From positions 6,625 to 70,624 of IMG/VR virus record IMGVR_UViG_2740892559_000001: a stretch of 64,000 bases of DNA. The stretch is one strand, 5' to 3'. The position numbers and the translations under genes were made by a program. Positions 14,106 through 37,436 of this stretch are shown in pieces. Position 1 is the first letter of the stretch; each line of letters begins with the position of its first letter. The notes beneath the pieces were generated by a model. It had not been told where the DNA came from, made no database searches, and saw only the letters and a list, made by a program, of their open reading frames with translations. Source of the stretch: a virus.

Positions 14106-14187
14106 ATTATAATGTGGAGTGCGTGGCGGCTATAAGGGGAATTCAGTGGGAAAGCAATACATAAGTAATACAATAGCAATACATTTA
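14106..14187 (-). promoter_or_regulatory. Regulon promoter A (triple 11-bp repeat plus TATAAT) for the Dit-hub-fibre operon
   Basis: Minus strand TGTATTGCTAT TGTATTACTTA TGTATTGCTTT CCC; TATAAT at 14111-14106, 43 bp from the proximal repeat. Confidence 0.75.
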
Positions 14188-14529
14188 AGAAAAAGGGAAG
14201 GTTATCCGTGCGATTTTCTCTCACTGCGAGGCATGAAAAATCTTTCGGTTATCAGTTATAAGAGGTCTCTTAACCGATAACTCAAAGCGCAGCATACTGA
14301 AAACGACAACTCTTATAATGTAGAGGGGTTGGGCGGTTAGAATGGGAATTCGGTGGGGAATATATAGAATCAATATAGACTTGAAAAAAAGTGGATGGAA
14401 GATCGGAAGGATGGAAGGGTGGAATTTGAAGTGCGTACGCTTATTTGGACCACAATTTTCTTAGCTTAACATGAGTTTGATAAATAAGAAAAATCTTCTC
14501 GTCGTATGCACTTCACAGTGCTTGATAAC

Positions 14530-15288
14530 CTATCGGACAGAGCGTTTCAGGTCTGCCCACTGCGTTGCCAATTTCCCTTGCGGTTCAACCGGCAGGAACA
14601 CTTCAACGCTGTCCATGATCAGAGTAATCTCGTCTGCGTCTAATGCACGCGTAAAGACGGCATAATCGTCCATTGACCCGGCAAAGGTCTCGCCACCGGA
14701 ACCACCGATGCGATAAATGTCGTTCGCTCCATCGGTTTCCTGAAAGTCGGTTTCAGCAACCATCTCACCGTCGGCATAAATCTTGAACTTATCACCATCG
14801 CCTGTGACGGCTATGTGCATCCACTTACCCTCTTTGACGATGCCCGGTTCGGTCTGACACAGGACTGTCCATCCGCCAACGCGGCCGCGCCAAGAGATGA
14901 GTCCCTCGTCTTTGTTAATGAACAAAGTGTTGTGTCCGATGCCCGACGGTAAACTCCGCCAGATGTGTTCCCATGTGGTGCCTTCAAAGTTCGGGTTAAC
15001 CCAAGCAGAAATTGTGAACGGATCTTCTTTGAAAAGGTCACCATGAAGTGAGTCGGAGGTTTCCAGTTCAACATAGGCGGTTGGGTCGAGTTCAAGGGCA
15101 TCTCCGAATTTGCCGTTTACCCACCGAGATGTGCCTGTAATGTCGCCGTGGTTATCGTTTCCTGATGCGTCTTCCGTATCACCATCAAATGGGTAGTACG
15201 CCACCATATCCGGGTCTTCACCCGTAATCCCTAAAGTGGCGTTTATCAGTAGGAAGGTGACTGCCAAAAATAACGTCCAACGTTTCAT
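14530..15288 (-). CDS. Secreted LamG/concanavalin-like domain protein
   Basis: Signal peptide, VAYYPFDG, FTISAWV, WMHIAVT, GSMDDYAVF motifs; PVEPQGKLATQWADLK tail. Confidence 0.9.
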   Translation of the reverse strand: MKRWTLFLAVTFLLINATLGITGEDPDMVAYYPFDGDTEDASGNDNHGDITGTSRWVNGKFGDALELDPTAYVELETSDSLHGDLFKEDPFTISAWVNPNFEGTTWEHIWRSLPSGIGHNTLFINKDEGLISWRGRVGGWTVLCQTEPGIVKEGKWMHIAVTGDGDKFKIYADGEMVAETDFQETDGANDIYRIGGSGGETFAGSMDDYAVFTRALDADEITLIMDSVEVFLPVEPQGKLATQWADLKRSVR

Positions 15289-15555
15289 GGGTATCGCTCC
15301 TTTGTTAAAAGCGGTGTAATGTCTTTAAACATGATACTTGGCTTAGGATAATTAGGGACGGTTCGGATAAACTTGGACAGATCATTCATATTTTTCTCCA
15401 AATCATTTTTCGGGAACCTTCAACTCTCCTGACACGTCCTTCACGAGAGAGTTTATCAAGGACACCACGGATTAAGGTGTAATCTTGGGAGTCGATATAA
15501 CTTATATTTCTCACTAATTGTCCTTTTAGTTTAATATTAACATCACAGATAAAAC

Positions 15556-17634
15556 TTACTTCCGAATCAACATCTTCCGTGTTGCCGTGAAATCCCCTGC
15601 CGTCAACGTATAGAAATAAATTCCGCTTGTGACGGGTTCACCGAGATAGTTTTTCCCGTCATAGTAGGCAGCGCGGTTTGGCGTTTTATACACACCCGCG
15701 GGCTGATGTCCGAGCGGCAAGGTTCGCACGATTGTTCCTGTTGTTGTCCGTATCGTCAACACAACTTCAGCTGGCACAGCTAACTGGTAAGGTATCCACG
15801 TTTCTGGATTAAACGGATTCGGGTAGTTTGCAAACAGTGCTGTTTTCATTTCTGTTTTCTCTGACTTCAAAAACATCAAGAGATTTTCAAGGCTTGTGAT
15901 ACCTTTCTGGAATTCGATGGACCCGTCGTATTCTGTCCATGCCATGTCTATCCATTGCTGGACTAATTCGGGCGAGATCGGTGCGTCCGGGGTGTTCTCT
16001 ACGGGCGCGTTGATGTACTGTGCGACAAGGACAAGGTCATTGATATTGACGACCCCATCTTCGTTTACATCCACACTGACACGGCTGCCATCGTCCTTCG
16101 AGGCGAGCGGTGTACCAAAATAGAATGCAACCTCCAGCATATCAAGGATACTCACTTTCCCGTCTCCATTGACATCTTCACGGCGCGGGGGTGTCTGATT
16201 TTGGTATCCTGGCAGCCGTTCCTCATATTGTGTATCGGGGGGAAGTCCAAAGAAACCTGACCACCACCCCTCCTTTTCATAAACAGCAACTAACAGGACA
16301 TTATCTCCTGCCAAGAGCGTGATACTGAAACTGTCTTGATAATCATTTGCGTCTCTGTCGATAGCGTTGGTATGAACCAGTGCCCCGTTGAGCCAGACCT
16401 TTACAGCGTCAGAACTGCCGACAAACAGGGTCGTCTCTTGTTCTCGGGGTGCGTTCAAGAGGATGGATCCATAAGCGACGTGGTGATCCACATTATCTAA
16501 GCCTAAACCGATCTCGTTGACGAGTTCGTTGATGTTATTGCCCCCGCTGCGTGAGAGGTACCCCTCTGTCCATCTCTTATTCCCGACAGGATCATACCGT
16601 CTTGCCCCCTGCGTTGCAATCATCGCTTCCGTTGTGGTGCCGTCAGTGGCACGACTGAGATAATCTCTGCCGGAAGCCGCCGCTGCCGCCCCGGACACGT
16701 CACCCGTTGGAACGATCACCCATAACCAAGGGCCCGTGATTTTCGGTGCGGGCCGGACCTCTCCAGGGTTACTGAACGTTATGATATTAACATCTTTCGG
16801 CAACGCATTCAGCGGTGAGAAGTCTTGTATGTTATTATTATTGAGTTCTATCCACGTCAAGTTATGAAGGGTCGCAAGCGGCGAGACATCCGAAATTTGG
16901 TTATGTCGAAGACTCAAACGTGCCAACCCTGTGAGACTTGATAGGGGCGTGATGTCTGTAATTTCGTTGCCGACGAGATAGACCTCTCGCAACTGCGTCA
17001 TCTCTGCCAAAGGTGAAATATCGGTGAGTTCGCCGCCACAGATATCGAGGATACCGAGTTTCGGTAAAGCGGTCAGTGCTGAAAGGTTTTCGATCGGGGT
17101 GCCCCACGTATGAAGCCGTCTTAAACTTATCAACCCGACCAGCGGCGTGAGATCAGCGATCGGGTTCTCAGTGAAATGTATCGATTCGAGTCTGATGAGC
17201 CCCGCAAGCGGTGAAAAGTCCGTGATCGCGTTATGCGAAACATTCAGGTTTGTCAAGTTGATGAGCCCTTTGAGGGGTGAAAGGTCGGATATGTTATTAC
17301 TGTCAAGATCGAGCACTTGCAGTTTGATTAAATCTTTAAGCGGTGACAGGTCAGATATAGCGTTATCGCGAAGTTCGAGTCTATCCAAGTTCGTTGCAGC
17401 TGCCAATCCAGTCAAGTTGGTAATGTTCGCCTCCTCCGCGTCAAGCCGTATCAACGTTGCCATATCCGCCGCAGTAATAGGGTCACCGGGTGCTTTTTCA
17501 AGCACGTTTACGAGTGCAGTCTGCAGGTTTGGGTCCGGAATGTTTACGATTTGGGCGAGTATCCCCTGGGGTAAGCTAAAAAGTCCGATATAAAACAAGA
17601 ACAGGTACAGCCATAATTTCATGCGTTGCATCAA
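15556..17634 (-). CDS. Secreted internalin-like LRR protein with dockerin and C-terminal FlgD-Ig/sorting domain
   Basis: N.ISDLSPL..L..L LRRs; DVNGDGKVSILD dockerin; ANYPNPFNPETWIPYQL C-terminal domain. Confidence 0.9.
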   Translation of the reverse strand: MMQRMKLWLYLFLFYIGLFSLPQGILAQIVNIPDPNLQTALVNVLEKAPGDPITAADMATLIRLDAEEANITNLTGLAAATNLDRLELRDNAISDLSPLKDLIKLQVLDLDSNNISDLSPLKGLINLTNLNVSHNAITDFSPLAGLIRLESIHFTENPIADLTPLVGLISLRRLHTWGTPIENLSALTALPKLGILDICGGELTDISPLAEMTQLREVYLVGNEITDITPLSSLTGLARLSLRHNQISDVSPLATLHNLTWIELNNNNIQDFSPLNALPKDVNIITFSNPGEVRPAPKITGPWLWVIVPTGDVSGAAAAASGRDYLSRATDGTTTEAMIATQGARRYDPVGNKRWTEGYLSRSGGNNINELVNEIGLGLDNVDHHVAYGSILLNAPREQETTLFVGSSDAVKVWLNGALVHTNAIDRDANDYQDSFSITLLAGDNVLLVAVYEKEGWWSGFFGLPPDTQYEERLPGYQNQTPPRREDVNGDGKVSILDMLEVAFYFGTPLASKDDGSRVSVDVNEDGVVNINDLVLVAQYINAPVENTPDAPISPELVQQWIDMAWTEYDGSIEFQKGITSLENLLMFLKSEKTEMKTALFANYPNPFNPETWIPYQLAVPAEVVLTIRTTTGTIVRTLPLGHQPAGVYKTPNRAAYYDGKNYLGEPVTSGIYFYTLTAGDFTATRKMLIRK

Positions 17635-17681
17635 AAATTCTCCTTCTTGAGTTCGGCGCGCGTGTCCCGCGCGCCATCAGC

Positions 17682-20600
17682 TTATTTCATCAACAACATT
17701 TTACGGGTCGTCGTGAAGTGATCTGCGGTGAGTGTGATAAAATAGATGCCACTTGCGACAGGTTCACCAACATCATTTTTGCCATCCCAATACACAGCAC
17801 GACTCCGGGTCTGATAAATGCCTGCGGGCTGATGTCCTAACGCCAGTGTCCGCACCACTGTGCCATTTGTACCGTAGATTGTTAAAGTAACCGTCGCCGG
17901 TTTCGCAAGATGATACGGTATCCACGTCTCGGGGTTGAATGGATTTGGATAGTTTGGCAGTAAAGCCGTCTTTTCCGGCACAAAAGTAGCATAGAGTGCC
18001 TCAATATTTGCAATACCGCGCCGGAAGGTGAGCGATCCATCATCTGCAGCGCGCAAGAGCTCGAGGACTTCTTCAACGTTTTCTGGGGTCAGACCAAGCG
18101 ATTGCGGGTCCCCGAACGGTGCAGCCCCCGCGGTACCTTCACCGAGGTGTGCAGCGACAATCGCAAGGTCCTTGCCATCAACAACACCGTCGCCATTGAC
18201 ATCCGCGCGGGGGTTCTCTGGCGGTGATTGCCCCAATGCCGCGACCACCAATATAACATCCGAGACATCTGTGATGCCATCTTCATTGACATCCCAGGTT
18301 GGAATCGTGGTTTCATCGCCTTCTACAACGATGCGGAGCTCCGGCGGGATAGAAGGCACAGGGTTTCCGCGACCCGAACCTGCTTCAAAATTCTCCAAAG
18401 TCAACAGGCTTTCTCCAGCCCCGACAACCGTAAATGTTACTGAGCATAATAAGCCGTTGCCATCTACACTGTCTCCAGAGAGTCTTAGTGCCTTCAAACC
18501 TGTGATTTTACCATCGCTATTCTCAATTGTGCCTGCCTCGAAGTAGGTTTCTTCGTCCGATGCTTGTAGGAAATCGCCTTCATTCACCTCAACTGCGTTT
18601 AGCACGGCGGGGTTAAACACGAGATCTGCTTGCCAGCCGCCTAAATTTTCCATATTTTCGGCGCGGAGTTCGAGCGTAAACGTATCTTCAACCTCAAATG
18701 CTGTCGCGTCCGTGGAGAACACGAACCGGGGACTCGGCAGAAACACCTCATATTCGGCATCACGTGCAAATGCGAAATGTCCACTGAAACCGCCATGTCC
18801 GTGGTTGTCAATCGCAACTAACAGTACATTCTGCCCCTGTTTGAGCGTTACAGGGAAGAAGCTGCCATCTTGGTCAAAGGTTGCGTGGAGTACGGTGTGA
18901 ACTAACTCGCCATTCAGAAAAACTTTCACAGCGTCATCGTTGCCAATGAACATCGTCGTCTGTTGTTCGCGCGGTGCATCCAAAATGACAGCACCGTAAA
19001 CGATATGGTCGTAGATTTCGCGACCTGTTCCCCAGCCGAGAGCGTCTGTCATTCGGTTAATATTATTGCCCCCCGTGTCGAGTCTATGCCATGTCCAGAC
19101 ACTTTTTCCAACAGCCTTGCCTGCTGTCGCGCCGTTGGTCGCAACTTTTATCTCCGTCGCTGCGCCATTTGTCGCCCGCGACAAAAAATCTGTTTGCGTA
19201 TCAAGACGTGTACCCGGAACAATTGCCCATAACCACGGTCCCGTTATGTGCGCCCCCCTATTGGTGGGAAACCCCGGATTCCCTGTCATGCGGATAGCTA
19301 CCCCTTGCAAATCGTCTAACGGTGAAAAGTCGAAGATCGCATTGTTACGCACGTCTAATCGATGCAAGTTGGTCAACTCGGAGAGCGGCGATACATCTGA
19401 AATGACATTATTTTCAAGATAGAGTAAGTTCAAGTTGGTCAACTCGGAGAGCGGCGATACATCTAAAATGAGATTCGCATCAAGATTCAGATGCGTCAGA
19501 TCCGTGAGGTTTTCCAACGGCGAGAGATCCGTTATCGCGTTATTTACCAATTCTAACCATCGTAGCTGCGTCAATTCCGCTAATGCAGAGATATCTGAAA
19601 TACCGCAGCCGTGAATTTCTAACCGTCTTAACGCTTTCAAACCTGTCAGAGATGGCAGCGCTGTTGTGGACTTGTCATTGCCATATTCTATCCATCTCAA
19701 TACACGCAAGGTCGCCAACGGTGAGAAGTCTGATATAGGTGTCTGCCATGCATCTATTCTTTCCAAACTGGTTAACTTTGCCAGGGGCGACACGTCTATG
19801 ACAGGGTTGCCAGAAATCCCGATCCCTTGTAACCTTGTTAAACCTGACAGTGGGGCTAAATCGATAATACGGTTCTGTTCAAGTCCTAACCAATCCACTC
19901 GGATTAACTTTGCCAACGGCGTGACATCTGTGATCTCATTGTCGCGGAGCTTGATGTTATTCAACTGCGTCAAACCCGCAAGCGGCGATAGATCCGTTAT
20001 CATATTGTGCCGAAACTCTATCCGTTCCAGCTGCGTCGCGAACTCAAGGCCTGTCAAATCACGAATCCCTCTCCGATCGGCGTTAATATTCCGTAAGTTT
20101 AACATCTCTGCGGCTGTGATCTCTTCATCCGCTGCTTTCCCTAAACGTTCGGCAATAACCGCACGCAGATTCACATCAGGGATATAAAAATCGCCCACTG
20201 GACGCATCGGGCCCTCTCTATCAGGCGCAACATACTCCGGATTGAAAAGTGCAGCGCGCACGTCGTGAAAATTGGATGTCCACGCATCCCGTTTGACAGT
20301 GCCGTTCTCCTCGACAAGCGGTGTCAACCCTAAGTCTTTCAAACTCTGTTTCTCGCGTATCTCCGTGAGAAATACTGGGGTTTCCAACCCGACGGCTGCC
20401 GCAGCGGATGCGACATCCAGCGGTGCCTGAAATGCCTCATGAAACCGTTGGACGGGTTCATTTTTATGTCTCTCAAAGAATTGGTTGCGTTCCTCTGCAT
20501 TCGCAAAGGGCTCCCCAATTTTCGCAAGGGCACTTTCAAACCGCGCCGTATCCGTTTGCAGCAGCGTATCCAGAACGGATTGTGCCGGATAGAGGCGTAA

Positions 20601-21908
20601 GGCTTCTGCTTTATTGTAGGGGGGGTTTTGGTTCTGTTCTATCGCGGCACGGACAGAATCTGTAAAATCCTTCATACCTTCGGTATGGCACCCGATACAG
20701 GAGAGACCATTCTTAACAGCAGGATCGCTCGCTGCAGGATTAGAGACAATTGTTGTAGGTGCGACATCCAAACGATTTCCGACAGCGTCTGCGAGATAAT
20801 AGGCCTGTAGTCCGTTGGGTAGGTTAAAGATCATTTCGCCGCCATCATGGGTGAAGTTAAGGGGGTGTGTAAAGATATTCTGTGAACCGACACTGCCAGC
20901 AAAGTCGTAACTTTTCCAATACGCACCATACCGCGCGGTATGCCGTTCGACAACACGATTGTGATTCGAGACACCCGAATCGTTGAAACCCGCACGCCAG
21001 ACGCGAACCCCCGGTGCATTCCTTATATTCACGGCAACATTGACATCGAGTTGACGCTCTAATTCACGGGTATTCTGCGGCAGCCCTAAAATGTCATTAT
21101 AGAGCGGCGGCAAGGACGCTGTGGCTAAAAACCAATCGACATGCACAAACGGCGCGAAACTACCCGTTTCTGCCCGCAGGGCTGCCATCTTTTCAAGGCG
21201 ACCGGCTTGTGTTTGTGGATCAAACGCAGGGTTATAAGGATACGCAGCCTCTATTTGCGCCCAGGCATTCGTTCGGTCCCATTCATAATGACGCAGGTCA
21301 ATGTAAAAGATTGTCTCTAACGCATCTACAGGCGTGGGGTTGGTCACGACAAAACCCCAAGATAGACTGTTGACGAGTTTAGAAAGGGCAACACGATAGT
21401 CTCTCAATGTCTCAGGGGATTCGCCCGAATTATAAAGATGCGTCAAGGTAAAATAGCGCGCAGATGTCCTGCTAAGCGGATCCAGTCCGCCAAGATGAGA
21501 CGCGATCGTATCGAGCACTGTATCAGGCGCAATAAAGTCAATGGAATGCGATACATCCCAATCGGGTGCACCGAGTGCGATCCAAAGGGCTATTGTCCGA
21601 ATCGCTTCATCTGAGAGCGCGGGTAATCCCAACGGCATCTGTGGCCCCTTTTCCGTCTCACCGAGCAGACGTTTATAGAACTCCGATTCGAGCGGATTCC
21701 CCGGCATAACAACCCCAGTATTAACTAATGCATCACGGTCCAGCAAGAGATCGTCCTTAAAAGCCCCGGTCGCATCATGACACCTCGCACAGTTGGCTTC
21801 CAAAATAGTATACGCTTCCTGTGCGATATTCTGCTGCGCGTCAACAACGGATACCCAAAAAACGCAAAACAATAGAAATATCGAAAAAGTAAAGATGAAT
21901 CTGCTCAT
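17682..21908 (-). CDS. Secreted protein: cytochrome c domains (two CxxCH), LRR, cohesin, dockerin, FlgD-Ig/sorting domain
   Basis: CARCH and CIGCH; LRRs; GWQADLVFNP cohesin; DVNEDGITD dockerin; NYPNPFNPETWIPY; start chosen at MSRFIFTF. Confidence 0.85.
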   Translation of the reverse strand: MSRFIFTFSIFLLFCVFWVSVVDAQQNIAQEAYTILEANCARCHDATGAFKDDLLLDRDALVNTGVVMPGNPLESEFYKRLLGETEKGPQMPLGLPALSDEAIRTIALWIALGAPDWDVSHSIDFIAPDTVLDTIASHLGGLDPLSRTSARYFTLTHLYNSGESPETLRDYRVALSKLVNSLSWGFVVTNPTPVDALETIFYIDLRHYEWDRTNAWAQIEAAYPYNPAFDPQTQAGRLEKMAALRAETGSFAPFVHVDWFLATASLPPLYNDILGLPQNTRELERQLDVNVAVNIRNAPGVRVWRAGFNDSGVSNHNRVVERHTARYGAYWKSYDFAGSVGSQNIFTHPLNFTHDGGEMIFNLPNGLQAYYLADAVGNRLDVAPTTIVSNPAASDPAVKNGLSCIGCHTEGMKDFTDSVRAAIEQNQNPPYNKAEALRLYPAQSVLDTLLQTDTARFESALAKIGEPFANAEERNQFFERHKNEPVQRFHEAFQAPLDVASAAAAVGLETPVFLTEIREKQSLKDLGLTPLVEENGTVKRDAWTSNFHDVRAALFNPEYVAPDREGPMRPVGDFYIPDVNLRAVIAERLGKAADEEITAAEMLNLRNINADRRGIRDLTGLEFATQLERIEFRHNMITDLSPLAGLTQLNNIKLRDNEITDVTPLAKLIRVDWLGLEQNRIIDLAPLSGLTRLQGIGISGNPVIDVSPLAKLTSLERIDAWQTPISDFSPLATLRVLRWIEYGNDKSTTALPSLTGLKALRRLEIHGCGISDISALAELTQLRWLELVNNAITDLSPLENLTDLTHLNLDANLILDVSPLSELTNLNLLYLENNVISDVSPLSELTNLHRLDVRNNAIFDFSPLDDLQGVAIRMTGNPGFPTNRGAHITGPWLWAIVPGTRLDTQTDFLSRATNGAATEIKVATNGATAGKAVGKSVWTWHRLDTGGNNINRMTDALGWGTGREIYDHIVYGAVILDAPREQQTTMFIGNDDAVKVFLNGELVHTVLHATFDQDGSFFPVTLKQGQNVLLVAIDNHGHGGFSGHFAFARDAEYEVFLPSPRFVFSTDATAFEVEDTFTLELRAENMENLGGWQADLVFNPAVLNAVEVNEGDFLQASDEETYFEAGTIENSDGKITGLKALRLSGDSVDGNGLLCSVTFTVVGAGESLLTLENFEAGSGRGNPVPSIPPELRIVVEGDETTIPTWDVNEDGITDVSDVILVVAALGQSPPENPRADVNGDGVVDGKDLAIVAAHLGEGTAGAAPFGDPQSLGLTPENVEEVLELLRAADDGSLTFRRGIANIEALYATFVPEKTALLPNYPNPFNPETWIPYHLAKPATVTLTIYGTNGTVVRTLALGHQPAGIYQTRSRAVYWDGKNDVGEPVASGIYFITLTADHFTTTRKMLLMK

Positions 21909-21997
21909 ATTCAATAAACCTCCATTCTTGAATAATATATGAGTTCGCAAATGCTGTTTCAATCTCGCTGTCGCGGGCTTTTCCTGAGAAATGAATC

Positions 21998-22888
21998 CTA
22001 TTTCTTTGCCTCTGTTGTGAAATCAAAAATGCGTATAATCCCCCAGTCTGCGGGTTCCCAATTCCCTGCGGCATCTGCCCATCGGAGTTGTACTCTATAA
22101 CGCTCTTTATGCCGTAACCGAAGCCCTTCACCCGGTAATCTCAAAAGGATAATACGCTTGTCATCTATCAACATTTTCCATTTCATATCAATCTGGCGCG
22201 TGCGATTATAGAGTTTCACGTCTGCTCTATGAATAGCCTCATCAAAGTCAAATACAAAACGTTCTGTGTTTATAGGTACATTTGTCCCTCCATGTCTCAC
22301 ACTACTTCTGGTCATTTGGGGGGCTCGATTGTCTCCTTTCTTGGTTGTGAATGTAATTAGAATGGTGCGCATATTTCTCGCAGCGTCTTCGACGTCCCCA
22401 GATATTTCATATTGTCCGTCGGTTTTTAAATTAATCACGTTTCCCAGGGGCGTGAGAACCACTTTTTTGCCACTCACAATCCGTTTCCAACGAAGACTCT
22501 GTCTAAACGTGCTGTGGTTTTTGTGGATTTGGACATTCGATTTTGCAACATCTTCATCGAAAGTTAAGGTGATGGTATCCAAATGTATATCTACGTCTCG
22601 CGCACCGTCCGATATCTTGATTTTTCTGTTACCATTCGCTCCAATGCTTTCTATGAGTTTCGGACCAAAGATGTCAAAAACAAGTTCAGGTTCAGGTTCA
22701 TCTACAATAGGCGCGACAACAGGAACGACTGGATCTGGCTGTGGGACTAAAGGTTCGGATTGTACTTCTGTATTAGGATCTTCTATCAAGGTAGGTATTG
22801 CGAAAAGAGGTTCAGGCGTGCCCTTTTCGGTATCCGTCGCACAACTGATGCACGTTAACAATAAAAATATAACGAGTACATATCTCAT
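21998..22888 (-). CDS. Lipoprotein with two Ig-like (Big_5-like) domains
   Basis: LLTC lipobox-like signal; ITLTFDEDV and FVFDFDEAI repeats. Confidence 0.6.
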   Translation of the reverse strand: MRYVLVIFLLLTCISCATDTEKGTPEPLFAIPTLIEDPNTEVQSEPLVPQPDPVVPVVAPIVDEPEPELVFDIFGPKLIESIGANGNRKIKISDGARDVDIHLDTITLTFDEDVAKSNVQIHKNHSTFRQSLRWKRIVSGKKVVLTPLGNVINLKTDGQYEISGDVEDAARNMRTILITFTTKKGDNRAPQMTRSSVRHGGTNVPINTERFVFDFDEAIHRADVKLYNRTRQIDMKWKMLIDDKRIILLRLPGEGLRLRHKERYRVQLRWADAAGNWEPADWGIIRIFDFTTEAKK

Positions 22889-22897
22889 TCTGACTCC

Positions 22898-23596
22898 TTA
22901 TCGGAAATTGATCCCGATGTTGTAGATAACCTCGGAGGCCTGAAAAGAGAACCCGACACTTCCGATGATATGTGTTGTCGGTGAGGCTTGTATTTCAACG
23001 CCAGCCTCACCTGTAAAGAGATTGTATGTATCATCAACAATAATACGACGGGTTGTGGACGTATTTCGCCACCTGTTTGAATAGAAGACACCGAAGAACG
23101 GGTGGAATCCCCATTTTGTTGTTGTCCAGAGTTTGCCAATAACGCCTATACCGCCTGTAACTGTCATATTGATATAGTGCGTCGCCTCGCCATTTCTATA
23201 GATTTGTGAGTAGTGTGACTGGAATGCACCTCTGAGAAAATAATCTATTGTCTTTTCAGCGATCAGTGGTCCGGTGGCTGCTAATTGAAGTTCGACTGAA
23301 GGTGATGGTGGCACGTCAATTGTTTGCTGGTTTGGTATATTCAGGAATGCGATACCCGGTAGAAAAGAAATCTTCAATGTGGGGTTGAACTGGTAGTCAA
23401 GGCTTCCGCGAATATGGCTCACTCTAAACTGGTGCCGATAGTTGCTGCTTCCTGTTATTTGGGATGGCGGTTCGTAATATTGAAATCCTAACCCAATAGC
23501 ACTCTCTTTTGCGGGCATACTCAAAATCCCTGTCTGTGCGGATACCGGTATACAACAGATGAGCAGAATGAAATAAATGAACGATAAAGTTCTCAT
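22898..23596 (-). CDS. Putative outer-membrane beta-barrel protein
   Basis: Signal peptide, alternating beta strands, aromatic C-terminus YNIGINFR. Confidence 0.55.
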   Translation of the reverse strand: MRTLSFIYFILLICCIPVSAQTGILSMPAKESAIGLGFQYYEPPSQITGSSNYRHQFRVSHIRGSLDYQFNPTLKISFLPGIAFLNIPNQQTIDVPPSPSVELQLAATGPLIAEKTIDYFLRGAFQSHYSQIYRNGEATHYINMTVTGGIGVIGKLWTTTKWGFHPFFGVFYSNRWRNTSTTRRIIVDDTYNLFTGEAGVEIQASPTTHIIGSVGFSFQASEVIYNIGINFR

Positions 23597-23607
23597 AGTG
23601 CGAAGAT

Positions 23608-24402: not shown

Positions 24403-24428
24403 AAAGTTCTCCTTTATTGAGAATAGTA

Positions 24429-24686: not shown

Positions 24687-24687
24687 G

Positions 24688-25299: not shown

Positions 25300-25323
25300 G
25301 TTGTCTTTCCTTCTTTGTTTTAT

Positions 25324-28929: not shown

Positions 28930-28936
28930 TTTTTTC

Positions 28937-29115
28937 TTGCTAAAAAGTGGGGAAAATGGTACAATAGAAGGGATAAGTGGGAAGGGGCGCAACCCTTCCC
29001 GTGCCAAGTATTGAAAAACCTAACGACTAAGCTGGATTTCGCATTGGCATTTTTATTTTAACACCTTCCTGTTGAAATGTCAAGCGAGGTCCCCAAACCT
29101 ATAGGAGCTTGACAT
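28937..29115 (+). promoter_or_regulatory. Sigma70 promoter plus structured leader of GIY-YIG cassette 2
   Basis: TTGCTA(28937)-17 bp-TACAAT(28960) with TG extension; same two hairpins as 7915-8096. Confidence 0.75.
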
Positions 29116-31157: not shown

Positions 31158-32657
31158 CTATTCCGCAAACCCTTTCTCTGAATAGAACCGCATCGAGATT
31201 TCATCTGGCGTGGTGGCACCGACGGACGGGTTCGCTTGGAATGCGAGGTTCCGTGTGACGGAGCCTCTGCCTTCGATAGGCAGTCCGGGAATTTCTGTGA
31301 GTCCACAATTCGGGAACCGGCTCTCGACCATGACCTGTCGACCGTTTGACAACCAGTTATAGTTTCGGATAACGATCGGCACCTTGCGTTTCTCGAAATA
31401 GATGTCCTGCCAGTGGACAGTCTCGTTATTCTCTGCAGCATCATCGGTTTCATGGTAGATGCCGGCATTGACAGTGACAGTGCGCCCTTCCGTTTCGCTG
31501 GTTACGGGTTGACCGGCAAGCGGATCGCCTGTAAAGCCTTCGGGATCGACATAGTTATGGTTGCCTTCTATATCGACGCTGGTCACTGCGATCGGATCAG
31601 GTGCATCATCAGGATCGCCATCAATGCGTGCGACAAGATCCTCGAGGCTCTCGTCCGGTTCTCCGAGTACGACGGCTGTGCCGAGGCTCGGATAAAAATT
31701 GAGCGGTTTGCGTGGATACTTTTTAAGGATACCGTCGTCCGCACGCAAATTCGCCAAAGTGTTCGCGACGACGGTCGGATCGGCAAGGCTTCTCGATTCC
31801 TGGACATAAGATGCCAGCAGTCCGAGCAGTAACCGGATATTCGCGCCGATCGAGAGCCGGAACAGATTCGGGATGATGTTGTAAGCGATATAGGGTGTAA
31901 AAGCCTTGAGCATCTGTGAGCTCCAACCGTCGAAGGGGTTATTGTTCTCGTTGAGCGTCAAGGCTGCCCATTTCGTATCTGGGAGGAACTTGAGTTCTAC
32001 GCTTGTCGGTGCGGTGCCATTCCCCCAATCGAGGATGAGTCTGTCGGCGCGGTGATAGAAATCTGTGGTTATCTTTTTCGTATCACTGGCACCGAATGCA
32101 ATTTCTTCGGTTGTTGGGGTATTGAAATCGTTGGATCGTGAGCCGCGTTTTTGTCCGTAGACGCGGATTTTACCTGCACCCGAAGGGGAACCTTTTAGGG
32201 TGATCTCCAATTGGCCTGGCCATTCTGCGAGTGCCGTTTTATCATCGTTATTGATTGTCACGATATTGCTGCTGGGAGCACCGATTTTGCCACCGGGGAT
32301 CGCCTGATCGTCGACATCATTATTCGTTGGCAGTGCGGTCGGGTTGAACCAACCTAACAGCATGTGGATCGCGTCGTCGGGGAGCAGTTCAAATTCCCAT
32401 TCGCCGCCGCCCCCGCGTTTAGAGATGATGCTTTCTGGGGTCGCGCCCCCGCCGATAATGCTTTCGGATTCCGTTTCTTCTGCGGTCGGATCGAGTGTGT
32501 TCCGTGTGAACACAAAATGGTTGCGGATGAGTTTCGCCAGTGTAGTTGTCGGTGCTGCCCCATCAAAAACATTTGCGCCGGTGATGGGTTCCCCGTATTT
32601 GAGTTGGCGACCGATAAATATATAAGAATCGCCGCCGGTACGTCTTTTAGGTGCCAT
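31158..32657 (-). CDS. Major tail (tube) protein with inserted domain
   Basis: 499 aa upstream of chaperones/TMP; C-terminal FPNCGLTEIPGLPIEGRGSVTRNLAFQA is typical of tube proteins. Confidence 0.75.
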   Translation of the reverse strand: MAPKRRTGGDSYIFIGRQLKYGEPITGANVFDGAAPTTTLAKLIRNHFVFTRNTLDPTAEETESESIIGGGATPESIISKRGGGGEWEFELLPDDAIHMLLGWFNPTALPTNNDVDDQAIPGGKIGAPSSNIVTINNDDKTALAEWPGQLEITLKGSPSGAGKIRVYGQKRGSRSNDFNTPTTEEIAFGASDTKKITTDFYHRADRLILDWGNGTAPTSVELKFLPDTKWAALTLNENNNPFDGWSSQMLKAFTPYIAYNIIPNLFRLSIGANIRLLLGLLASYVQESRSLADPTVVANTLANLRADDGILKKYPRKPLNFYPSLGTAVVLGEPDESLEDLVARIDGDPDDAPDPIAVTSVDIEGNHNYVDPEGFTGDPLAGQPVTSETEGRTVTVNAGIYHETDDAAENNETVHWQDIYFEKRKVPIVIRNYNWLSNGRQVMVESRFPNCGLTEIPGLPIEGRGSVTRNLAFQANPSVGATTPDEISMRFYSEKGFAE

Positions 32658-32786: not shown

Positions 32787-33038
32787 TTACTGGAACTGGT
32801 TACTGGCTACTGGTAACTGGGAACTGACAACCATTTTGCCGCGCTCATCGTGTGTGGTGCGGGTCTTGACGAACCCGTTTGCTGTTTGCCGCCAAGGTGA
32901 CCAGTTTTGGAGCCCGAAGCGTTTCACGAGGGCGTGTTTCGCGGATCTGACCGTATGCGCTGAGATCGTGTCTGCGGTATGCTCAAGGATCGTGCCGTGC
33001 GGTGTGCATCGGGTATAGGTGAAATTGTAAGTGTGCAT
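32787..33038 (-). CDS. Hypothetical protein
   Basis: 83 aa, coupled to the 33042..33332 gene. Confidence 0.5.
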   Translation of the reverse strand: MHTYNFTYTRCTPHGTILEHTADTISAHTVRSAKHALVKRFGLQNWSPWRQTANGFVKTRTTHDERGKMVVSSQLPVASNQFQ

Positions 33039-33041
33039 AGA

Positions 33042-33332
33042 TCAGATTTTAGGCGGACGGTTAAAGAGTCGTGCGAGTAGCCCTCGCTTCTGGAGTGCCT
33101 TGATTTTTGCTTCTGCCGCGCGTAGATCGTCCAATGCGCCATCAAATTTCGCCTTAAAATGATCGCGTTGTCTGCGTGCCTCGTGCGTTTGAATCCGTAT
33201 ATCGAGTTTATCAAGATCGGTTTCGATGGCTTGCTCGATGAATTTGGATTCTGAAAGCCCTAACGCCTCGGCGGCTTTCTTGACCCGAAGCTTCGTCTGT
33301 CTCTGGACATTTGAAGAGATACGTTCTTTCAT
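33042..33332 (-). CDS. RHH-type DNA-binding protein with coiled coil
   Basis: RISSNV..TKLRVKKAAEALGLSESKFIEQAI pattern. Confidence 0.6.
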   Translation of the reverse strand: MKERISSNVQRQTKLRVKKAAEALGLSESKFIEQAIETDLDKLDIRIQTHEARRQRDHFKAKFDGALDDLRAAEAKIKALQKRGLLARLFNRPPKI

Positions 33333-33344
33333 TTTTTTGATTTT

Positions 33345-33469
33345 CCTTGCGGTTCGGTTCTTTTAACGTTCCTTGCGGTTCGGTGAGGTGGGTTGAATGA
33401 CCAACGCCCCTCTCCGTAAGTCTAGAAGAAATACCCCAGCAAAAACCCCTCCACTACGTTACGGGCTAC
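33345..33469 (-). repeat. R1 element copy 3 plus a partial duplicated end
   Basis: CCTTGCGGTTCGG at 33345 and 33371; GGGCTAC end at 33468. Confidence 0.85.
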
Positions 33470-33539
33470 ATTTATGCTTGAATATTCATCAGAAACCCTC
33501 TTTAACTGGTTACTGGTAACTGGCAACTGGAAACTTCCT

Positions 33540-34175
33540 TTATCCTTTTTTTACGATTTCGAGAAACCCGGAGAGCGTCCGGTTTCGCCAGTTGCCGACT
33601 CTGTATGCCTCGCTTTCAGCGACGATAGCGAAGTAGTATTTCGCGTCGGCTTTGGGTCGCCAGAAATCCCATCGGAAGTCGACGGTTACGTGTCCTAACC
33701 CGCCACCGGAACCGCCCTGTCCTGTTGCGAAATCGACGACAACATCGTCCGTATTCTCCATCATCTGTCGGAGTTGCACTTCGAGGGTCCGGCTCTGTTG
33801 CGCGCCTTGCACATCTATATCGAAATGCAAGTCAATGTTAAAAAGCCCTTTCGGGAACTGGATCACCTCGTTCTGTGTGCGTTGTGTGCTGGAGGCTGCG
33901 GTGATGTCGCAATCGGTTTCGTCAACGACATTTGTAAAGTTGAGTCCAAGGGTATCACCGCCGTATTCATGTTCGTCGACCACCCCAGAGAAGCCGACAG
34001 CGTAAGCCTGACCGGTGGACACGAAAGGGTGATGGACACCGCCACCCATAAATCTATCTGTCTGCTTTGTGACGGTTCCAAGCACGTTACCTGCAACTGT
34101 TCTACCTTGCAGATAGATAAAAGAGACAGGGTCTTTGCTACCGTAGAGTCCGCCAACGATGCCGCCGCGTATCAT
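33540..34175 (-). CDS. Hypothetical beta-rich protein with N-terminal MIRGGIVGGLYG
   Basis: 211 aa; first 12 aa identical to 34187..34732. Confidence 0.7.
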   Translation of the reverse strand: MIRGGIVGGLYGSKDPVSFIYLQGRTVAGNVLGTVTKQTDRFMGGGVHHPFVSTGQAYAVGFSGVVDEHEYGGDTLGLNFTNVVDETDCDITAASSTQRTQNEVIQFPKGLFNIDLHFDIDVQGAQQSRTLEVQLRQMMENTDDVVVDFATGQGGSGGGLGHVTVDFRWDFWRPKADAKYYFAIVAESEAYRVGNWRNRTLSGFLEIVKKG

Positions 34176-34186
34176 TTGTCTGCCTC

Positions 34187-34732
34187 CTATCCGACCTTCT
34201 CAACGCGTAGGAAATGGCTTCTGTTTCGGTCACCGTGGATAGGGAACAGGAAATAAAACTGTTCTGTGCCAGCAACGACAAAATCAGGATAGATGAGCTG
34301 ATACGTTGTGTTGGCAGGTGCTGTTCCCGATGTAAAGCCTGATGTATGCGTGATGACAGTGTCATCGGCGTTCATTTTGACTTCTCGCAATTCGACCCGG
34401 AATCCACCCTGAGACGCGCTTGCACTATACCCTTCAAATAAGAGGTCGTAGCGTCCGTTGGAGAATTGTAAGACAGTCTTATCCGCCTGCCCCGTTACAT
34501 CGAGATTGGCGACATCCCCACCGTTAAGGATTGTCAGGAGATCGGATTTCCCGCCGTCGTAAACTTCATCCGCGGTTGCCTTGAATTCTGCAAGCCTGCG
34601 GTTTCCACTTCCGGCAGGTGTGTAGTTCTCACCGACCCTTTTCGTCTGGCTTTTGCCGTAATAGTAAGAGACCGGGCCGCCACCACCGCCACCTTTTCCG
34701 TAAAGCCCACCAACGATCCCACCACGTATCAT
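34187..34732 (-). CDS. Hypothetical protein with N-terminal MIRGGIVGGLYG and Gly linker
   Basis: 181 aa. Confidence 0.7.
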   Translation of the reverse strand: MIRGGIVGGLYGKGGGGGGPVSYYYGKSQTKRVGENYTPAGSGNRRLAEFKATADEVYDGGKSDLLTILNGGDVANLDVTGQADKTVLQFSNGRYDLLFEGYSASASQGGFRVELREVKMNADDTVITHTSGFTSGTAPANTTYQLIYPDFVVAGTEQFYFLFPIHGDRNRSHFLRVEKVG

Positions 34733-34734
34733 GT

Positions 34735-35037
34735 TTAACTCCCGTGTGGGTCGTCTTTCGCGATCCAGACTTCAGCACCGGCAGTTTTCGTGAAGAGTCG
34801 GTAATCGAAGCCCTTCTTGACGGTTATATCCAGCACATCACCTTCCGCGGTGAGTTTGATTTCGTTGCCGTTGTACCGTGCGTTTTTCCAGGTCCCACCC
34901 TCGCGCCGTATTTGCACATGCACTTCATGTGAAGTATAGGTATCGCAAAAGAGCTGGTATTCGCCATACGAATTTTCACCGAGGATATCGGCATCCGCAG
35001 TATGGGTTTGATCGGTTTTCAGAATAACTTTCGCCAT
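34735..35037 (-). CDS. Small beta-rich hypothetical protein, first gene after promoter C
   Basis: 100 aa; RBS supplied by R1 copy 4. Confidence 0.65.
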   Translation of the reverse strand: MAKVILKTDQTHTADADILGENSYGEYQLFCDTYTSHEVHVQIRREGGTWKNARYNGNEIKLTAEGDVLDITVKKGFDYRLFTKTAGAEVWIAKDDPHGS

Positions 35038-35049
35038 TTTTTTAACTTT

Positions 35050-35148
35050 CCTTGCGGTTCGGTGAGGTAAATCGCAGCTGTGAAGTGCTATTCCGTCCAG
35101 CTAGAAGAAATACCCTATCAAAAACCCTTCCATTACATTACAGGCTAC
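35050..35148 (-). repeat. R1 element copy 4
   Basis: CCTTGCGGTTCGGTGAGG...CCATTACATTACAGGCTAC. Confidence 0.85.
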
Positions 35149-35302
35149 GGTTGTGATGAAAAATTATGAACTATGATTTTTGGGATTCAATTAAATAGTT
35201 AATGGTTAATGGTTATAAGTTAAAGAGGTTTCTTGTAAGCCCCAACCGTTTGGGAGTATCGGAAACCAAGAACTAAAAACCAACAACTAATAACTAATAA
35301 CC

Positions 35303-35380
35303 ATTATAAGGGGGAGCAGATAGCGTCTATAAGGGGAATTCGGCGGGAAAGCAATACATAAGCAATACATAAACAATACG
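35303..35380 (-). promoter_or_regulatory. Regulon promoter C (triple 11-bp repeat plus TATAAT) for the tube/TMP-side operon
   Basis: Minus strand CGTATTGTTTA TGTATTGCTTA TGTATTGCTTT CCC; TATAAT at 35308-35303, 43 bp from the proximal repeat. Confidence 0.8.
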
Positions 35381-35516
35381 GAAAGTTATCAGTACGATTT
35401 TTCTGCGAAAAATCTTTCGGTTATCAGTTTTCAGTTAAAGAGGTGTGTTGTGGCAGTAACAGGAACGGTAACCATCACAAGCTCTTAACTGGCAACTGGT
35501 AACTGGCAACTGACAA

Positions 35517-36056
35517 CTATATCTTCATAGCAAGTTGTGCGCCCATGAGTTGTTTGATGGCGTGTCGGAATTGTTCAACTGTGCAGTGCGTCATATCATA
35601 GAAACTTGGGGATGGCGATACCTTCGGGAGTGGCGGATACGGCTCAGCTTCAATTTTGTTGTGTTTTAGCGTGTCTCCGATGTCGAGTTTGTGGGTGTTA
35701 CTCGCATCGCGGAATGCCCAGTAGTTGATGTCGAACACAGGGATAGAATCGTAGTCATTCGTTGCGAGGGGGCCGGAGCTCTGCGCAAGGATGGTGTTTT
35801 CAGGCAGGTCAAATTTTTTCAGTGCGGTTTGGATACGGGTCTCGGTGCTATGATCGCACACGATATAGAGATGTATCCCCTTCATGATGAGATCGGTATT
35901 ATTGATAAGGCTGGCGAGGGTCCAGGGTAACATCTTTTCCTGCCAATCGATGTCTTCGGCATGGATGGTGATAAGGAGTGCGGTGTGTTTGCCGGGGATG
36001 AGTGGCACTTCGTATTCAAGCGGGCATTCGGGGAGTTGGGTGCGGATGTCGTTCAT
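35517..36056 (-). CDS. Stand-alone paralog of the N-terminal domain of the 3040..6045 fusion
   Basis: WTLASLINNTDLIMKGIHLY aligns with WAAMSLIRNTDLAERGVGIY. Confidence 0.6.
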   Translation of the reverse strand: MNDIRTQLPECPLEYEVPLIPGKHTALLITIHAEDIDWQEKMLPWTLASLINNTDLIMKGIHLYIVCDHSTETRIQTALKKFDLPENTILAQSSGPLATNDYDSIPVFDINYWAFRDASNTHKLDIGDTLKHNKIEAEPYPPLPKVSPSPSFYDMTHCTVEQFRHAIKQLMGAQLAMKI

Positions 36057-36116
36057 AATAGTTATCAGTTTTCAGTACGGTTTCTCTCACTGTGAGGCAT
36101 GAAAACCTTTCGGTTA

Positions 36117-36368
36117 TCAGTTGCGATCCTCAGATTCGCGAATTGTGAACTGCAGGGTCTGGCACACATCTACCAACTTATTGTATGCGACTCTAATATT
36201 AAAATCGTCTGTAAATTCTTCAAGTTTCTTACCTATCGTTTCTATATCGGCGATTGCCGATACTGCTGCCTCTACATACGCAGCATCGGTTTTGATTTTG
36301 CTGGCATGTCCAGGTATGTACTCCAATTGGTTACTCCTTGTGTCGATAACGTAATCCAGCGATTTCAT
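36117..36368 (-). CDS. Hypothetical helical protein
   Basis: Start MKSLDY, 7-8 nt after the AAGGAAA end of R1 copy 5; the upstream ORF extension is repeat-derived. Confidence 0.55.
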   Translation of the reverse strand: MKSLDYVIDTRSNQLEYIPGHASKIKTDAAYVEAAVSAIADIETIGKKLEEFTDDFNIRVAYNKLVDVCQTLQFTIRESEDRN

Positions 36369-36380
36369 TCTTTTAACTTT

Positions 36381-36458
36381 CCTTGCGGTTCGGTGAGGGT
36401 GGATAGAAAAACCAACGTTCCTCTCCGTAGATCCGCGCGCCATTACATTACGCGCTAC
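36381..36458 (-). repeat. R1 element copy 5
   Basis: CCTTGCGGTTCGGTGAGG...CCATTACATTACGCGCTAC. Confidence 0.85.
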
Positions 36459-36482
36459 AGTACCTCTTTAACTGGTTACTGG

Positions 36483-36779
36483 TTACTTGCAAGGCAGCAT
36501 TGTGCCGTCTTGGATTTTGAAGAGTCGGTTATCTTCAAAGGTAACCATCAGCGCGCCCTCGTTTTCGGGATTATTGAGCACGACATCCACTGCGGAGACA
36601 TCTTCCTGTTTGTAGCTTTTATGTCCGTCCTTCGCATAGAAGTTCGGCATATCGACACACTGATACCAGATCGTTTGTCCCTCCGACGCTGCTTCCGCCT
36701 TCTTCTTTGCGATGTGTTCTTGGATTTTCCCCGGTAGCACGGGTTCATATTCCTGTGGGACGTTCATTCGGTTTTGCAC
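36483..36779 (-). CDS. Hypothetical protein
   Basis: 98 aa, coupled to the upstream RHH gene. Confidence 0.55.
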   Translation of the reverse strand: MQNRMNVPQEYEPVLPGKIQEHIAKKKAEAASEGQTIWYQCVDMPNFYAKDGHKSYKQEDVSAVDVVLNNPENEGALMVTFEDNRLFKIQDGTMLPCK

Positions 36780-37072
36780 TATGACCTCCTTTTCTGCGAT
36801 TTTGCAATGAAACGGGTTTCCCTCTCAACTGCCTTGCGAATCACCTCTGCTTCAGAGATATTCTGCATCTTCGCCATAATTTTGATATTCTGCTGTTGCT
36901 GCAGCGTGAAGTATTGGCTTTGCTCTTTCTCCGCTTGGACATCTTTATAGTCGTCAAGTGCGCGTCGGACGATTTCAACCTTATTCAAGCCTGTTTTTTC
37001 GCTCTCCTGTTCGAGCCAGTCGAGTTGCTGCTGCGTCACCTTAAAAGTAACGGGTTTTAGACTACTTGCCAA
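36779..37072 (-). CDS. Tandem ribbon-helix-helix (CopG-like) regulator, divergent from the head operon
   Basis: VTFKVTQQQLDWLEQESEKTGLNKVEIVRRALD plus a second unit QNISEAEVIRKAVE; AGGAG RBS. Confidence 0.7.
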   Translation of the reverse strand: MASSLKPVTFKVTQQQLDWLEQESEKTGLNKVEIVRRALDDYKDVQAEKEQSQYFTLQQQQNIKIMAKMQNISEAEVIRKAVERETRFIAKSQKRRS

Positions 37073-37303
37073 GGGTATCTCCTTGTAAATGGTTATAAGT
37101 TATAAGTTAATAGTTATAAGTTAAAGAGGGAAGCCTGGTTGTCGGTTATGCGTTGCTGGTTAGGAGGGATCTGAAACGCTCATATTTTTTTCTTACGGTT
37201 GCTACCCAGAGCGGCGACACCGGTTACAAAGCACTAATAAAGTATCAGAAACCAAACCTATAACTTATAACTTATAACTAAGAACCAACAACTACTCATA
37301 CCT

Positions 37304-37332
37304 ATTATAGCATAAGCAGCCCATTCTTTCAA
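37304..37332 (-). promoter_or_regulatory. Sigma70 promoter for the RHH operon
   Basis: TTGAAA-17 bp-TATAAT with TG extension. Confidence 0.7.
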
Positions 37333-37358
37333 CGCCCCGAACCCCTTATTTTCTGAAA

Positions 37359-37436
37359 TGTATTGTTTATGTATTGCTTATGTATTGCTTTCCCAAAAAA
37401 TTCCACTTCTGAACGCCTCGTACACCACATTATAAT
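37359..37436 (+). promoter_or_regulatory. Regulon promoter B (triple 11-bp repeat plus TATAAT) for the head operon
   Basis: TGTATTGTTTA TGTATTGCTTA TGTATTGCTTT CCC; TATAAT at 37431, 43 bp from the proximal repeat. Confidence 0.8.

Follow-up and report, generated by a model that had tools for sequence, protein, structure and literature searches.

Direct-repeat arrays upstream of three virion-operon promoters in a phage contig, with a putative tandem ribbon-helix-helix protein as their candidate reader

How does a phage whose virion genes lie in scattered blocks, one of them set apart by 12 kb of cargo, bring these blocks under common control? The question is raised by a 64,000-nucleotide (nt) stretch of viral DNA (hereafter the window), which covers positions 6,625 to 70,624 of IMG/VR record IMGVR_UViG_2740892559_000001, that is bases 6625-70624 of the 78,675-bp contig C177, itself part of a draft assembly of 5.38 Mb in 178 contigs. 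Three promoters of the window, named here P_head, P_tail and P_distal-tail, share an upstream array of direct repeats. An original prediction, made from the letters of the stretch, proposed that one activator switches them on together. Our analysis leans towards positively controlled late promoters read by a phage-encoded protein, for which a 97-amino-acid (aa), probably tandem ribbon-helix-helix (RHH) protein is the leading candidate. The modules belong to a tailed phage or prophage of a sponge symbiont, probably Candidatus Poribacteria; to our knowledge, no experiments have addressed transcription in Poribacteria or in their phages.

Three promoter modules and the genes they face

The three modules share one layout (3/3): three 11-bp head-to-tail units are followed by CCC-N4-AATTCC, then by 26 nt and TATAAT (Table 1). 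The repeat period is exactly 11 bp, and the distance from the first base of the proximal unit to TATAAT is exactly 50 nt in all three. Reading the sequence and matching the pattern both confirmed the sites where the original prediction had placed them. The 43 bp that it gave up to TATAAT is the same spacing with the count starting where the 7-nt core TGTATTG ends, and holds in 3/3, while the spacer that it gave as N4-5 between CCC and AATTCC is N4 in each module. With TATAAT set at -12 to -7, the units occupy -84 to -52 and the CCC-N4-AATTCC block -51 to -39, of which AATTCC itself takes -44 to -39. The -35 positions hold TATAGC, TATAGA or TCTGAA, with only 2-3 of 6 matches to TTGACA, so that the predicted lack of a good -35 stands for every module.

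A 36-nt pattern made of the three repeats and TTTCCC is matched in the window at the three modules only, at 0-2 mismatches, and in none of 100 dinucleotide-preserving shuffles. The lone repeat 10-mer is not enriched (11 matches for 8.3 expected); hence, the signal is the phased triplet together with its downstream block. Furthermore, the triplet, the doublet TGTATTG-N4-TGTATTG and the combination CCC-N4-AATTCC-N24-28-TATAAT are each confined to the three modules across the 5.38-Mb assembly. The genome-wide scan proposed as a check of the original prediction thus yielded no further members, and the motif is not common. The degenerate fourth copy that it had noticed is real: it has two units, ends in TATAAG and is a genuine paralog of the downstream block, with a spacing of 51 nt instead of 50. 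This variant is unique to the window genome; two relatives lack it before their homologous promoter. Its repeat resembles the type found in lineage L020 (TCTATAGTGAT).

Six promoters of the window match TTGACA-N16-18-TATAAT at 11 or more of 12 positions, for 0.55 expected, and all of them are intergenic; one is P_RHH (Table 1). Therefore, the host polymerase evidently uses canonical -35 and -10 elements, and the modules form a distinct class that lacks a -35.

Each module points into virion genes. P_head reads into a TerS-like gene immediately 5' of TerL, then into TerL, portal and major head protein genes. P_tail reads into 34735-35037, then into the tube-like and tape-measure genes, and P_distal-tail into the gene of a 262-aa protein, then into large tail and fibre genes down to position 489. 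The predicted orientation towards structural operons is borne out by family matches on the head and tail sides. The label 'Dit' given to the third operon is positional only because the 262-aa protein has no family match; a protein-atlas look-up returned only unnamed viral clusters for it. Deposited phage genomes yielded no match to 35000-40000 by megablast.

Table 1. Features of the window and repeat units found in related genomes (window coordinates)
Feature	Position	Strand	Details
P_head late promoter module	37359..37436	+	units 37359-37369, 37370-37380, 37381-37391 (TGTATTGTTTA TGTATTGCTTA TGTATTGCTTT); CCC-AAAA-AATTCC 37392-37404; TATAAT 37431-37436
P_tail late promoter module	35303..35380	-	units 35380-35370, 35369-35359, 35358-35348 (CGTATTGTTTA TGTATTGCTTA TGTATTGCTTT); TATAAT 35308-35303
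P_distal-tail ('Dit') late promoter module	14106..14183	-	units 14183-14173, 14172-14162, 14161-14151 (TGTATTGCTAT TGTATTACTTA TGTATTGCTTT); TATAAT 14111-14106
Variant fourth module	14312..14379	-	units TCTATATTGAT TCTATATATTC; CCC-ACCG-AATTCC; 51 nt; TATAAG 14317-14312
Putative tandem RHH protein, 97 aa, proposed repeat reader	36779..37072	-	unit 1 about residues 6-45, unit 2 about residues 52-85
98-aa protein	36483..36779	-	start overlaps RHH stop by 1 nt; consistently after RHH
Last cassette gene	35517..36056	-	179 aa here, 176-182 in close relatives, 326-339 in distant ones, same N-terminus
P_RHH, sigma-70 consensus promoter	37332-37304	-	TTGAAA-17-(TGc)TATAAT; back-to-back with P_head; drives the RHH cassette
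TerS-like winged helix-turn-helix protein, 220 aa	37656..38318	+	first gene of P_head operon
HTH124, 124 aa	54070..54444	-	two helix-turn-helix motifs (TerS/transposase-like); rival regulator candidate
Leader array	37506-37662		between P_head and the TerS-like gene; 11-bp units AAAACCTTATG; 44-bp super-period
Palindrome CGTCATTTGACG	37477-37488		inside conserved box TCGTCATTTGACGATGC
TerL	38322-39764		PHROGs and Pfam
Portal	39865-42162		PHROGs and Pfam
Protease-like	42512-43681		PHROGs and Pfam
Major head protein	44392-45807		PHROGs and Pfam
Tape measure	26095-29007		PHROGs and Pfam
Tube-like	31158-32657		PHROGs and Pfam, weak match
262-aa protein	13197-13985		first gene after P_distal-tail
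Cargo	14530-25747		same strand; between tape measure and third module
ParA-like gene	24688-25401		
DUF3768 paralogs	53494-54057 and 54992-55375	-	flank HTH124
Type A repeat			window and three relatives, L037: TGTATTGCTTA
Repeat units, L041			TATATTGCTTA / TGTATTGCTAT / TGTATTGTTTT
Repeat units, L024, L034			TCTATTGTGAT
Repeat units, L020			TCTATAGTGAT / TATATAGTCAT
Repeat units, L028, L043			CCTATTGGGAT (L043: TCTATTGTATT) / TATACATTAAA / CCTATTGTTTT
Repeat units, L036			CCTATTGTGTA / TCTATTGCGTA
Repeat units, L038, L039			TGTATG(N)CTT

Repeat types among relatives and the candidate reader

An exact 25-mer of the module also occurs in one Candidatus Poribacteria metagenome-assembled genome and in two IMG/VR contigs, in which full scans found 3, 3 and 2 copies. 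The 11 type A copies of these four records align without gaps over 78 bp and their flanks are unrelated between paralogs, a contrast that reads as the footprint of constraint on the module itself. More widely, a uniform scan recovered 27 module instances in 15 related phage or prophage records. The spacing is exactly 50 nt in 26 of them and 49 in one, and in all 27 the proximal unit lies at about -62 to -52, with no overlap with the -35 or -10 region. At least six types of repeat sequence were distinguished, constant inside one genome but variable from genome to genome, and both divergent promoters carry the same type in every genome where both were captured. For instance, contig C79 of the same assembly (23.7 kb; TerL 66% identical) carries four modules with CCTATTG-type units, at 7172-, 15935-, 20125- and 20490+, so that two phage contigs of one assembly carry different types. 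The divergent pair of C79 is separated by only 365 bp, a gap that contains no cassette, and one of its modules precedes a leucine-rich-repeat (LRR) cargo protein.

Types that are uniform within genomes and different between them, combined with a fixed geometry, point to a phage-encoded, sequence-specific reader that would touch RNA polymerase, not to a host regulon. Hence, the modules are very probably controlled by a repeat reader encoded by the phage itself. A single sequence-specific factor for the shared array is the simplest reading of these comparisons, which agree with the claim of one activator as far as the shared array, the 27 instances at fixed geometry and the uniform types are concerned; that this factor activates is a further step, considered below. 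Head-to-tail repeats of 11 bp are typical of winged-helix response regulators, and the original prediction had attributed the sites to PhoB/OmpR or SARP proteins, with a host factor among its candidates. An OmpR/PhoB-type response regulator or another factor of the host, which would tie virion production to a host signal, would also suit the core TAT(T)G common to most types. Nevertheless, we consider it very unlikely, since the sites lie at -84 to -52 and do not replace the -35 as pho boxes do, since no other doublet or triplet occurs in the draft assembly, and since the non-core positions are phage-specific, with two types in one assembly. Moreover, the only protein of the winged-helix kind encoded nearby, 37656-38318, goes with a different array.

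The window and its relatives carry a small gene cassette between the divergent P_tail and P_head. It is read from the minus strand in the order RHH protein, 98-aa protein, an optional small open reading frame (ORF) and a protein of 176-182 aa. Its promoter, P_RHH, is conserved in all relatives; the -10 is of the extended kind, and the core shows no recognisable operator. Between P_RHH and the RHH start lies a leader of 220 nt, which contains long hairpins made of heptad repeats. The distance from the array to the -35 of P_RHH varies from about 1 to 24 bp, whereas that to the late -10 is fixed at 50 nt, which indicates that the array is positioned relative to the late promoter and not to P_RHH. 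A search of 5.8 billion proteins with the RHH protein gave 75 clusters, nearly all of them unnamed and metagenomic. Wherever gene maps or DNA were fetched, synteny is kept down to about 40% RHH identity: portal, TerL and TerS-like genes, a gap of 300-470 bp, then the RHH gene and that of a protein of about 100 aa. The homolog L035, found in another context, is an exception.

Type Ib partition systems use RHH proteins bound to direct-repeat arrays near promoters, and two ParA-like genes lie on the contig, the second beyond the right end of the window. The arrays could on these grounds be centromere-like (parS) or packaging sites of a plasmid-prophage, bound by an RHH centromere protein acting with ParA. 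We find this hardly credible: the RHH gene is never beside ParA, the ORF map places the ParA genes at least 11 kb away, each followed by its own small ORF, and every array points into virion genes with TATAAT at 50 nt. The packaging-type array is a separate one, in the terS leader.

The fold assignment of the 97-aa protein comes from family models. Pfam PF01402 (RHH_1) matches residues 8-44 with 29.5 bits for a cutoff of 20.5, PF12651 (RHH_3) scores 26.8 bits for a cutoff of 21.6, and the Pfam RHH matches together span residues 6-44. CopG is the best match both in hmmsearch and in Foldseek (TM 0.76, only the N-terminal half being aligned well), although no Foldseek match to the model reached E <= 0.001. 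Residues 56-84 give weak matches, under the cutoffs, to VapB26 (E 0.075) and to a RelB RHH model (E 0.0036), within a reported range of 0.004-0.08. In the AlphaFold2 (AF2) model (pLDDT 79), helices pair up as H14-27/H31-51 and H57-70/H74-96. The two putative RHH units may pair within one chain as a single-chain pseudo-dimer.

We compared the first beta-strand of the RHH proteins with the repeats, the register being fixed by the 50-nt distance to the -10. Residue 11 is K or R where position 2 of the repeat is G (five lineages: the window group, L041, L038, L037 and L039). It is I (L024/L034), T (L028), T (L043), L (L036) or H (L020) in the five lineages where position 2 is C or A. The rule therefore holds in 10/10 lineages, and for L038, L039, L041 and L043 it was predicted before their DNA was read; we regard it as suggestive. 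Among the regulators named in the original prediction, only the RHH protein both co-localises and co-varies with the repeats, and on these comparisons it is on balance likely to be their reader.

Some side observations concern the same strand and repeats. An RHH paralog at 1399-1653 of contig C123, 48% identical and not beside a late module, has T at strand residue 11 and goes with CTATTG units, which makes an eleventh consistent pair. In the T11 lineages, every copy seen (two promoters each in L028 and L043) has TATACATTAAA as its middle unit, which resembles a distinct, conserved element and not a decayed repeat.

Two other predicted candidates behave differently. The TerS-like protein is 41-68% identical among the four type A genomes, whose promoter repeats are identical. 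It goes instead with the leader array, which lies at the same position in G002, G003, G001 C82, L020, L024, L036, L037 and L041 as an 11- or 22-bp array of 9-14 tandem units. The unit of this array differs in every relative, including the four with identical promoter repeats, and the array is likely a pac or TerS-binding site that co-evolves with TerS. We therefore rejected this protein as the reader of the promoter repeats.

HTH124 is a rival candidate, as the late promoters could depend on an activator other than the RHH protein, which would then have another job: HTH124, the 98-aa protein or a reader that escaped recognition. The placement of HTH124 in its operon is comparable to that of lambda Q, Mu C or RinA. 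HTH124 has two helix-turn-helix (HTH) motifs about 80 residues apart, with weak matches to sigma-70 region 4 and TerS-HTH, and is present in all four type A genomes. Its size and its position at the distal end of a leftward early operon resemble those of Ltr-type late activators (PMC3753634), and the covariation that designates the RHH protein is statistically insecure (see below). However, the HTH124 family is 80-91% identical almost throughout and both HTH heads are near-invariant. It is still 85-90% identical on contigs of 58,908 bp and 865,976 bp, identified by their length with those that bear RHH proteins of 51-53% identity; one of these is 85% identical to the RHH protein of L043, a lineage with another repeat type. 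HTH124 is thus near-invariant across types and cannot set their specificity, so that it was discarded as a type-specific reader. Moreover, none of the tested proteins matched the ArpU, RinA, Ltr or Mor/C families in PHROGs, Pfam or NCBIfam, and the 98-aa protein has no DNA-binding signature. We consider a reader other than the RHH protein improbable.

The 98-aa protein may instead be a partner of the RHH protein. Its 28 N-terminal residues are near-invariant and include a peptide, M-x-N/D-R-M-x-V/I-P-x-x-Y-x-P-V-L-P-x-K, whose invariant residues are kept even by relatives with an unrelated C-terminal part; a conserved docking peptide is suggested by this pattern. The protein-atlas look-up returned nothing for it, and its structure model (pLDDT 53.5) is unusable. 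The 179-aa protein that closes the cassette is probably not a regulator: a language-model search gave only a weak glycosyltransferase-2-like lead, and the gene is either truncated here or encodes a two-domain protein minus its C-terminal half.

Other observations were made around these candidates. At the distal end of the leftward operon, the HTH124 gene is flanked by genes for two paralogs of the DUF3768 family, which share about 50% identity over 119 aa. A perfect palindrome closely precedes the leader array, inside a box present in the eight relatives read that far (in one of them as CGTCAAATGACG) and constant across repeat and TerS types; it may be the site of an invariant factor (e.g. HTH124) or a cleavage or hairpin site.

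Proposed mechanism and the sign of control

If the RHH protein is the reader, late control could proceed as follows. The sigma-70 polymerase of the host would use the perfect TATAAT, the -35 being absent. A phage protein, most likely the RHH protein with one molecule per repeat, would sit on the three direct repeats from about -84 to -52, on the same helix face, with centres near -79, -68 and -57. From this fixed position it would recruit or stabilise polymerase in a class I manner, and the A/T-rich CCC-N4-AATTCC block might seat the C-terminal domain of the alpha subunit (alpha-CTD). Two RHH units in one chain would make the protein asymmetric and suited to an asymmetric unit, which would account for repeats that are head-to-tail, one helical turn apart, and not inverted. 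As the protein accumulates from P_RHH, the head, tail and distal-tail operons would be switched on together, the third promoter restoring late control downstream of the variable cargo.

Several points weigh against this proposal. Since most types share the core TAT(T)G, the reader could still be a conserved factor specific for this core. On an RHH tree built with the strand columns removed, each of the two covarying traits changes only three times, in coincidence, with one contrast on a well-supported branch; a sign test is not significant, the independent pairs being too few, and the covariation of residue 9 is imperfect, since L038 combines T9 with TGTATG. No beta-ribbon or paired strands formed in the AF2 monomer model (pTM 0.39), and the family matches of the second unit are weak. 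In addition, the GIY-YIG cassettes carry minus-strand sigma-70 consensus promoters (29083-29055 and 8064-8036) directed into the tape-measure and fibre genes, and 'three operons, one switch' is therefore a simplification. Finally, a consensus and apparently constitutive P_RHH is awkward for the late activator of a prophage, unless the promoter or its leader is controlled (the 220-nt leader could supply such control), and RHH proteins of phages and plasmids, where characterised, mostly act as repressors.

These last points would suit the opposite sign of control, in which a constitutive RHH protein coats the same repeats, perhaps over CCC-AATTCC, and keeps the late genes silent in the prophage until it is lost. 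P_RHH is near-perfect, its -10 is extended and an operator is not visible within its core; the relatives are classed as proviruses or lie on contigs of up to 866 kb; and the known RHH repressors, such as omega, Arc/Mnt and ParG, act on direct-repeat arrays at several promoters. Repression nevertheless appears unlikely. The repeats end at -52 and, across 27 instances, never cover the -35 or -10; the spacing of strictly 50 nt and the phasing on the helix suit contact with polymerase and not occlusion; and late promoters devoid of both a -35 and an extended -10 should be weak unaided. To judge from this architecture, control is probably positive.

The third promoter bears on how the operons came to be split. 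The same-strand cargo of 12 kb encodes two large proteins with LRR, dockerin, cohesin and FlgD_ig (sorting) domains, a Big_5 protein, ParA and a Laminin_G_3 protein; such eukaryote-like or adhesion-type proteins are typical of sponge symbionts. G002 has about 6 kb of unrelated same-strand cargo after the tape measure, and its third promoter immediately precedes the gene of the 262-aa protein. Contig C60 of G001, which holds no tape-measure gene, also has the promoter before the homologous gene, and upstream of it is a cargo protein with the same C-terminal sorting domain as the LRR proteins of the window. In G003, the tape measure is directly followed by distal-tail genes, with neither cargo nor third module, but these genes are not homologous to those of the window and the contrast is weak. 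The proposal that the distal-tail operon gained its own promoter copy to bypass the cargo thus fits the window, G002 and C60 without being proven: the data are consistent with a promoter that keeps this operon under late control behind a variable insertion hot-spot.

Using the major head gene as query, RNA was found in five sponge metatranscriptome runs, with small shares, and no RNA records were listed for 34500-39500. Over 33000-47000, the RNA contigs are assembled ones, from relatives at the level of about 85-95%, and fall in large part on dispersed heptad repeats, with chimeric joints, so that starts, strand and level are not readable from them. The heptads themselves (CCAGTTA, ACTGGTA, CTGGAAA and GTTATAA) occur in 3-7 copies, often as inverted pairs, in most intergenic gaps of 31128-53330, for instance at 35381-35520, at 37092-37123 with 37255-37279 and at 42144-42174 with 42459-42490. 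The element that precedes P_tail folds at -41.3 kcal/mol (z = -5.0 versus shuffles). Since metatranscriptome contigs pile up on the heptads and join different heptad loci, this element is dispersed well beyond the phage of the window.

A further side observation concerns the endonuclease genes. Beside each plus-strand GIY-YIG/NUMOD-like gene lies a conserved 190-bp element with a minus-strand promoter, TTGACA-17-(TGt)TAAAAT. The one at 8064-8036 reads into a fibre gene that starts at 7909, and the one at 29083-29055 into the tape-measure gene. A weaker plus-strand promoter, TTGCTA-17-TGcTATACT (near 7921-7950), opposes the minus-strand one and is directed towards the endonuclease gene. It seems that the GIY-YIG cassette supplies the gene it interrupts with a promoter and so restores its expression.

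Significance and comparison with known systems

Taken together, the regulatory architecture is well supported and the identity of the regulator moderately supported. We tentatively raise the possibility of an undescribed class of late activators: tandem-RHH monomers, bound as a train of three on phased 11-bp repeats, that activate the -10-only promoters of three virion operons and whose specificity has repeatedly been re-written (K/R11 with G2) across a large family of phages of sponge symbionts. Under such a scheme, the fourth module, with the repeats of another type, would be a relic or a port for cross-talk, and co-resident phages would keep their late regulons insulated from each other. 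With two promoter classes, a small candidate regulator and at least six natural site types, the locus offers a test system for an RHH protein that reads an asymmetric site and activates. If the rule linking residue 11 to base 2 holds, it would provide a simple recognition code, useful for orthogonal switches. The locus also shows late control kept over a distal-tail operon split from the tape measure, which bears on the carriage of host-interaction genes by phages of symbionts.

For the late-gene activators of Gram-positive phages, namely the Ltr superfamily (RinA, LtrA-C and ArpU) and Alt of TP901-1, late transcription needs three or four direct repeats upstream of the terS promoter, and a single factor encoded by the phage turns on packaging, morphogenesis and lysis genes (PMC3753634). 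The window likewise has direct repeats before the terS promoter, with a -10 and no -35. However, Ltr-type activators are basic proteins of about 130 aa, sigma-region-4-like, encoded on the same strand just upstream of terS, and they use 7-nt repeats and usually a single late operon, whereas the window has a divergent gene for a putative tandem RHH protein, 11-bp units, a fixed 50-nt spacing and three operons. As no sigma-region-4-like activator was found, the system is not a member of the Ltr/RinA/ArpU/Alt or Mu C families.

As a single-chain tandem RHH monomer, TraY of F binds adjacent sites as a train of three (bioRxiv 10.1101/2024.12.19.629322). The likeness, two probable RHH units in one chain, is one of architecture only: the candidate reader and TraY gave no match to each other in Pfam, NCBIfam or Protein Data Bank (PDB) searches. 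TraY acts in the relaxosome at oriT, where one of its three sites is inverted, whereas the units of the window are all direct and tied to promoters. TraY also stimulates the traY promoter. Omega of pSM19035, ParG and Arc/Mnt resemble the system in that small RHH proteins act on short-repeat arrays at several promoters, Arc dimers being one helical turn apart; the likely reader has the fold of omega and Arc. Unlike the proposed reader, these are homodimeric repressors with sites over the core promoter (heptads for omega), whereas the sites of the window are phased and lie upstream of -52.

Mu C/Mor and P2 Ogr act on promoters with a -10 and no -35, several late promoters sharing one activator site (PMC2582627). 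The sites of C and Mor differ in being dyad-symmetric and abutting the -35, and the proteins are HTH dimers or zinc fingers. Pho boxes share with the modules both the 11-bp-period direct repeats and the -10 without -35. They replace the -35 and belong to a host regulon, whereas the array described here ends at -52, is confined to the phage and changes its sequence from phage to phage.

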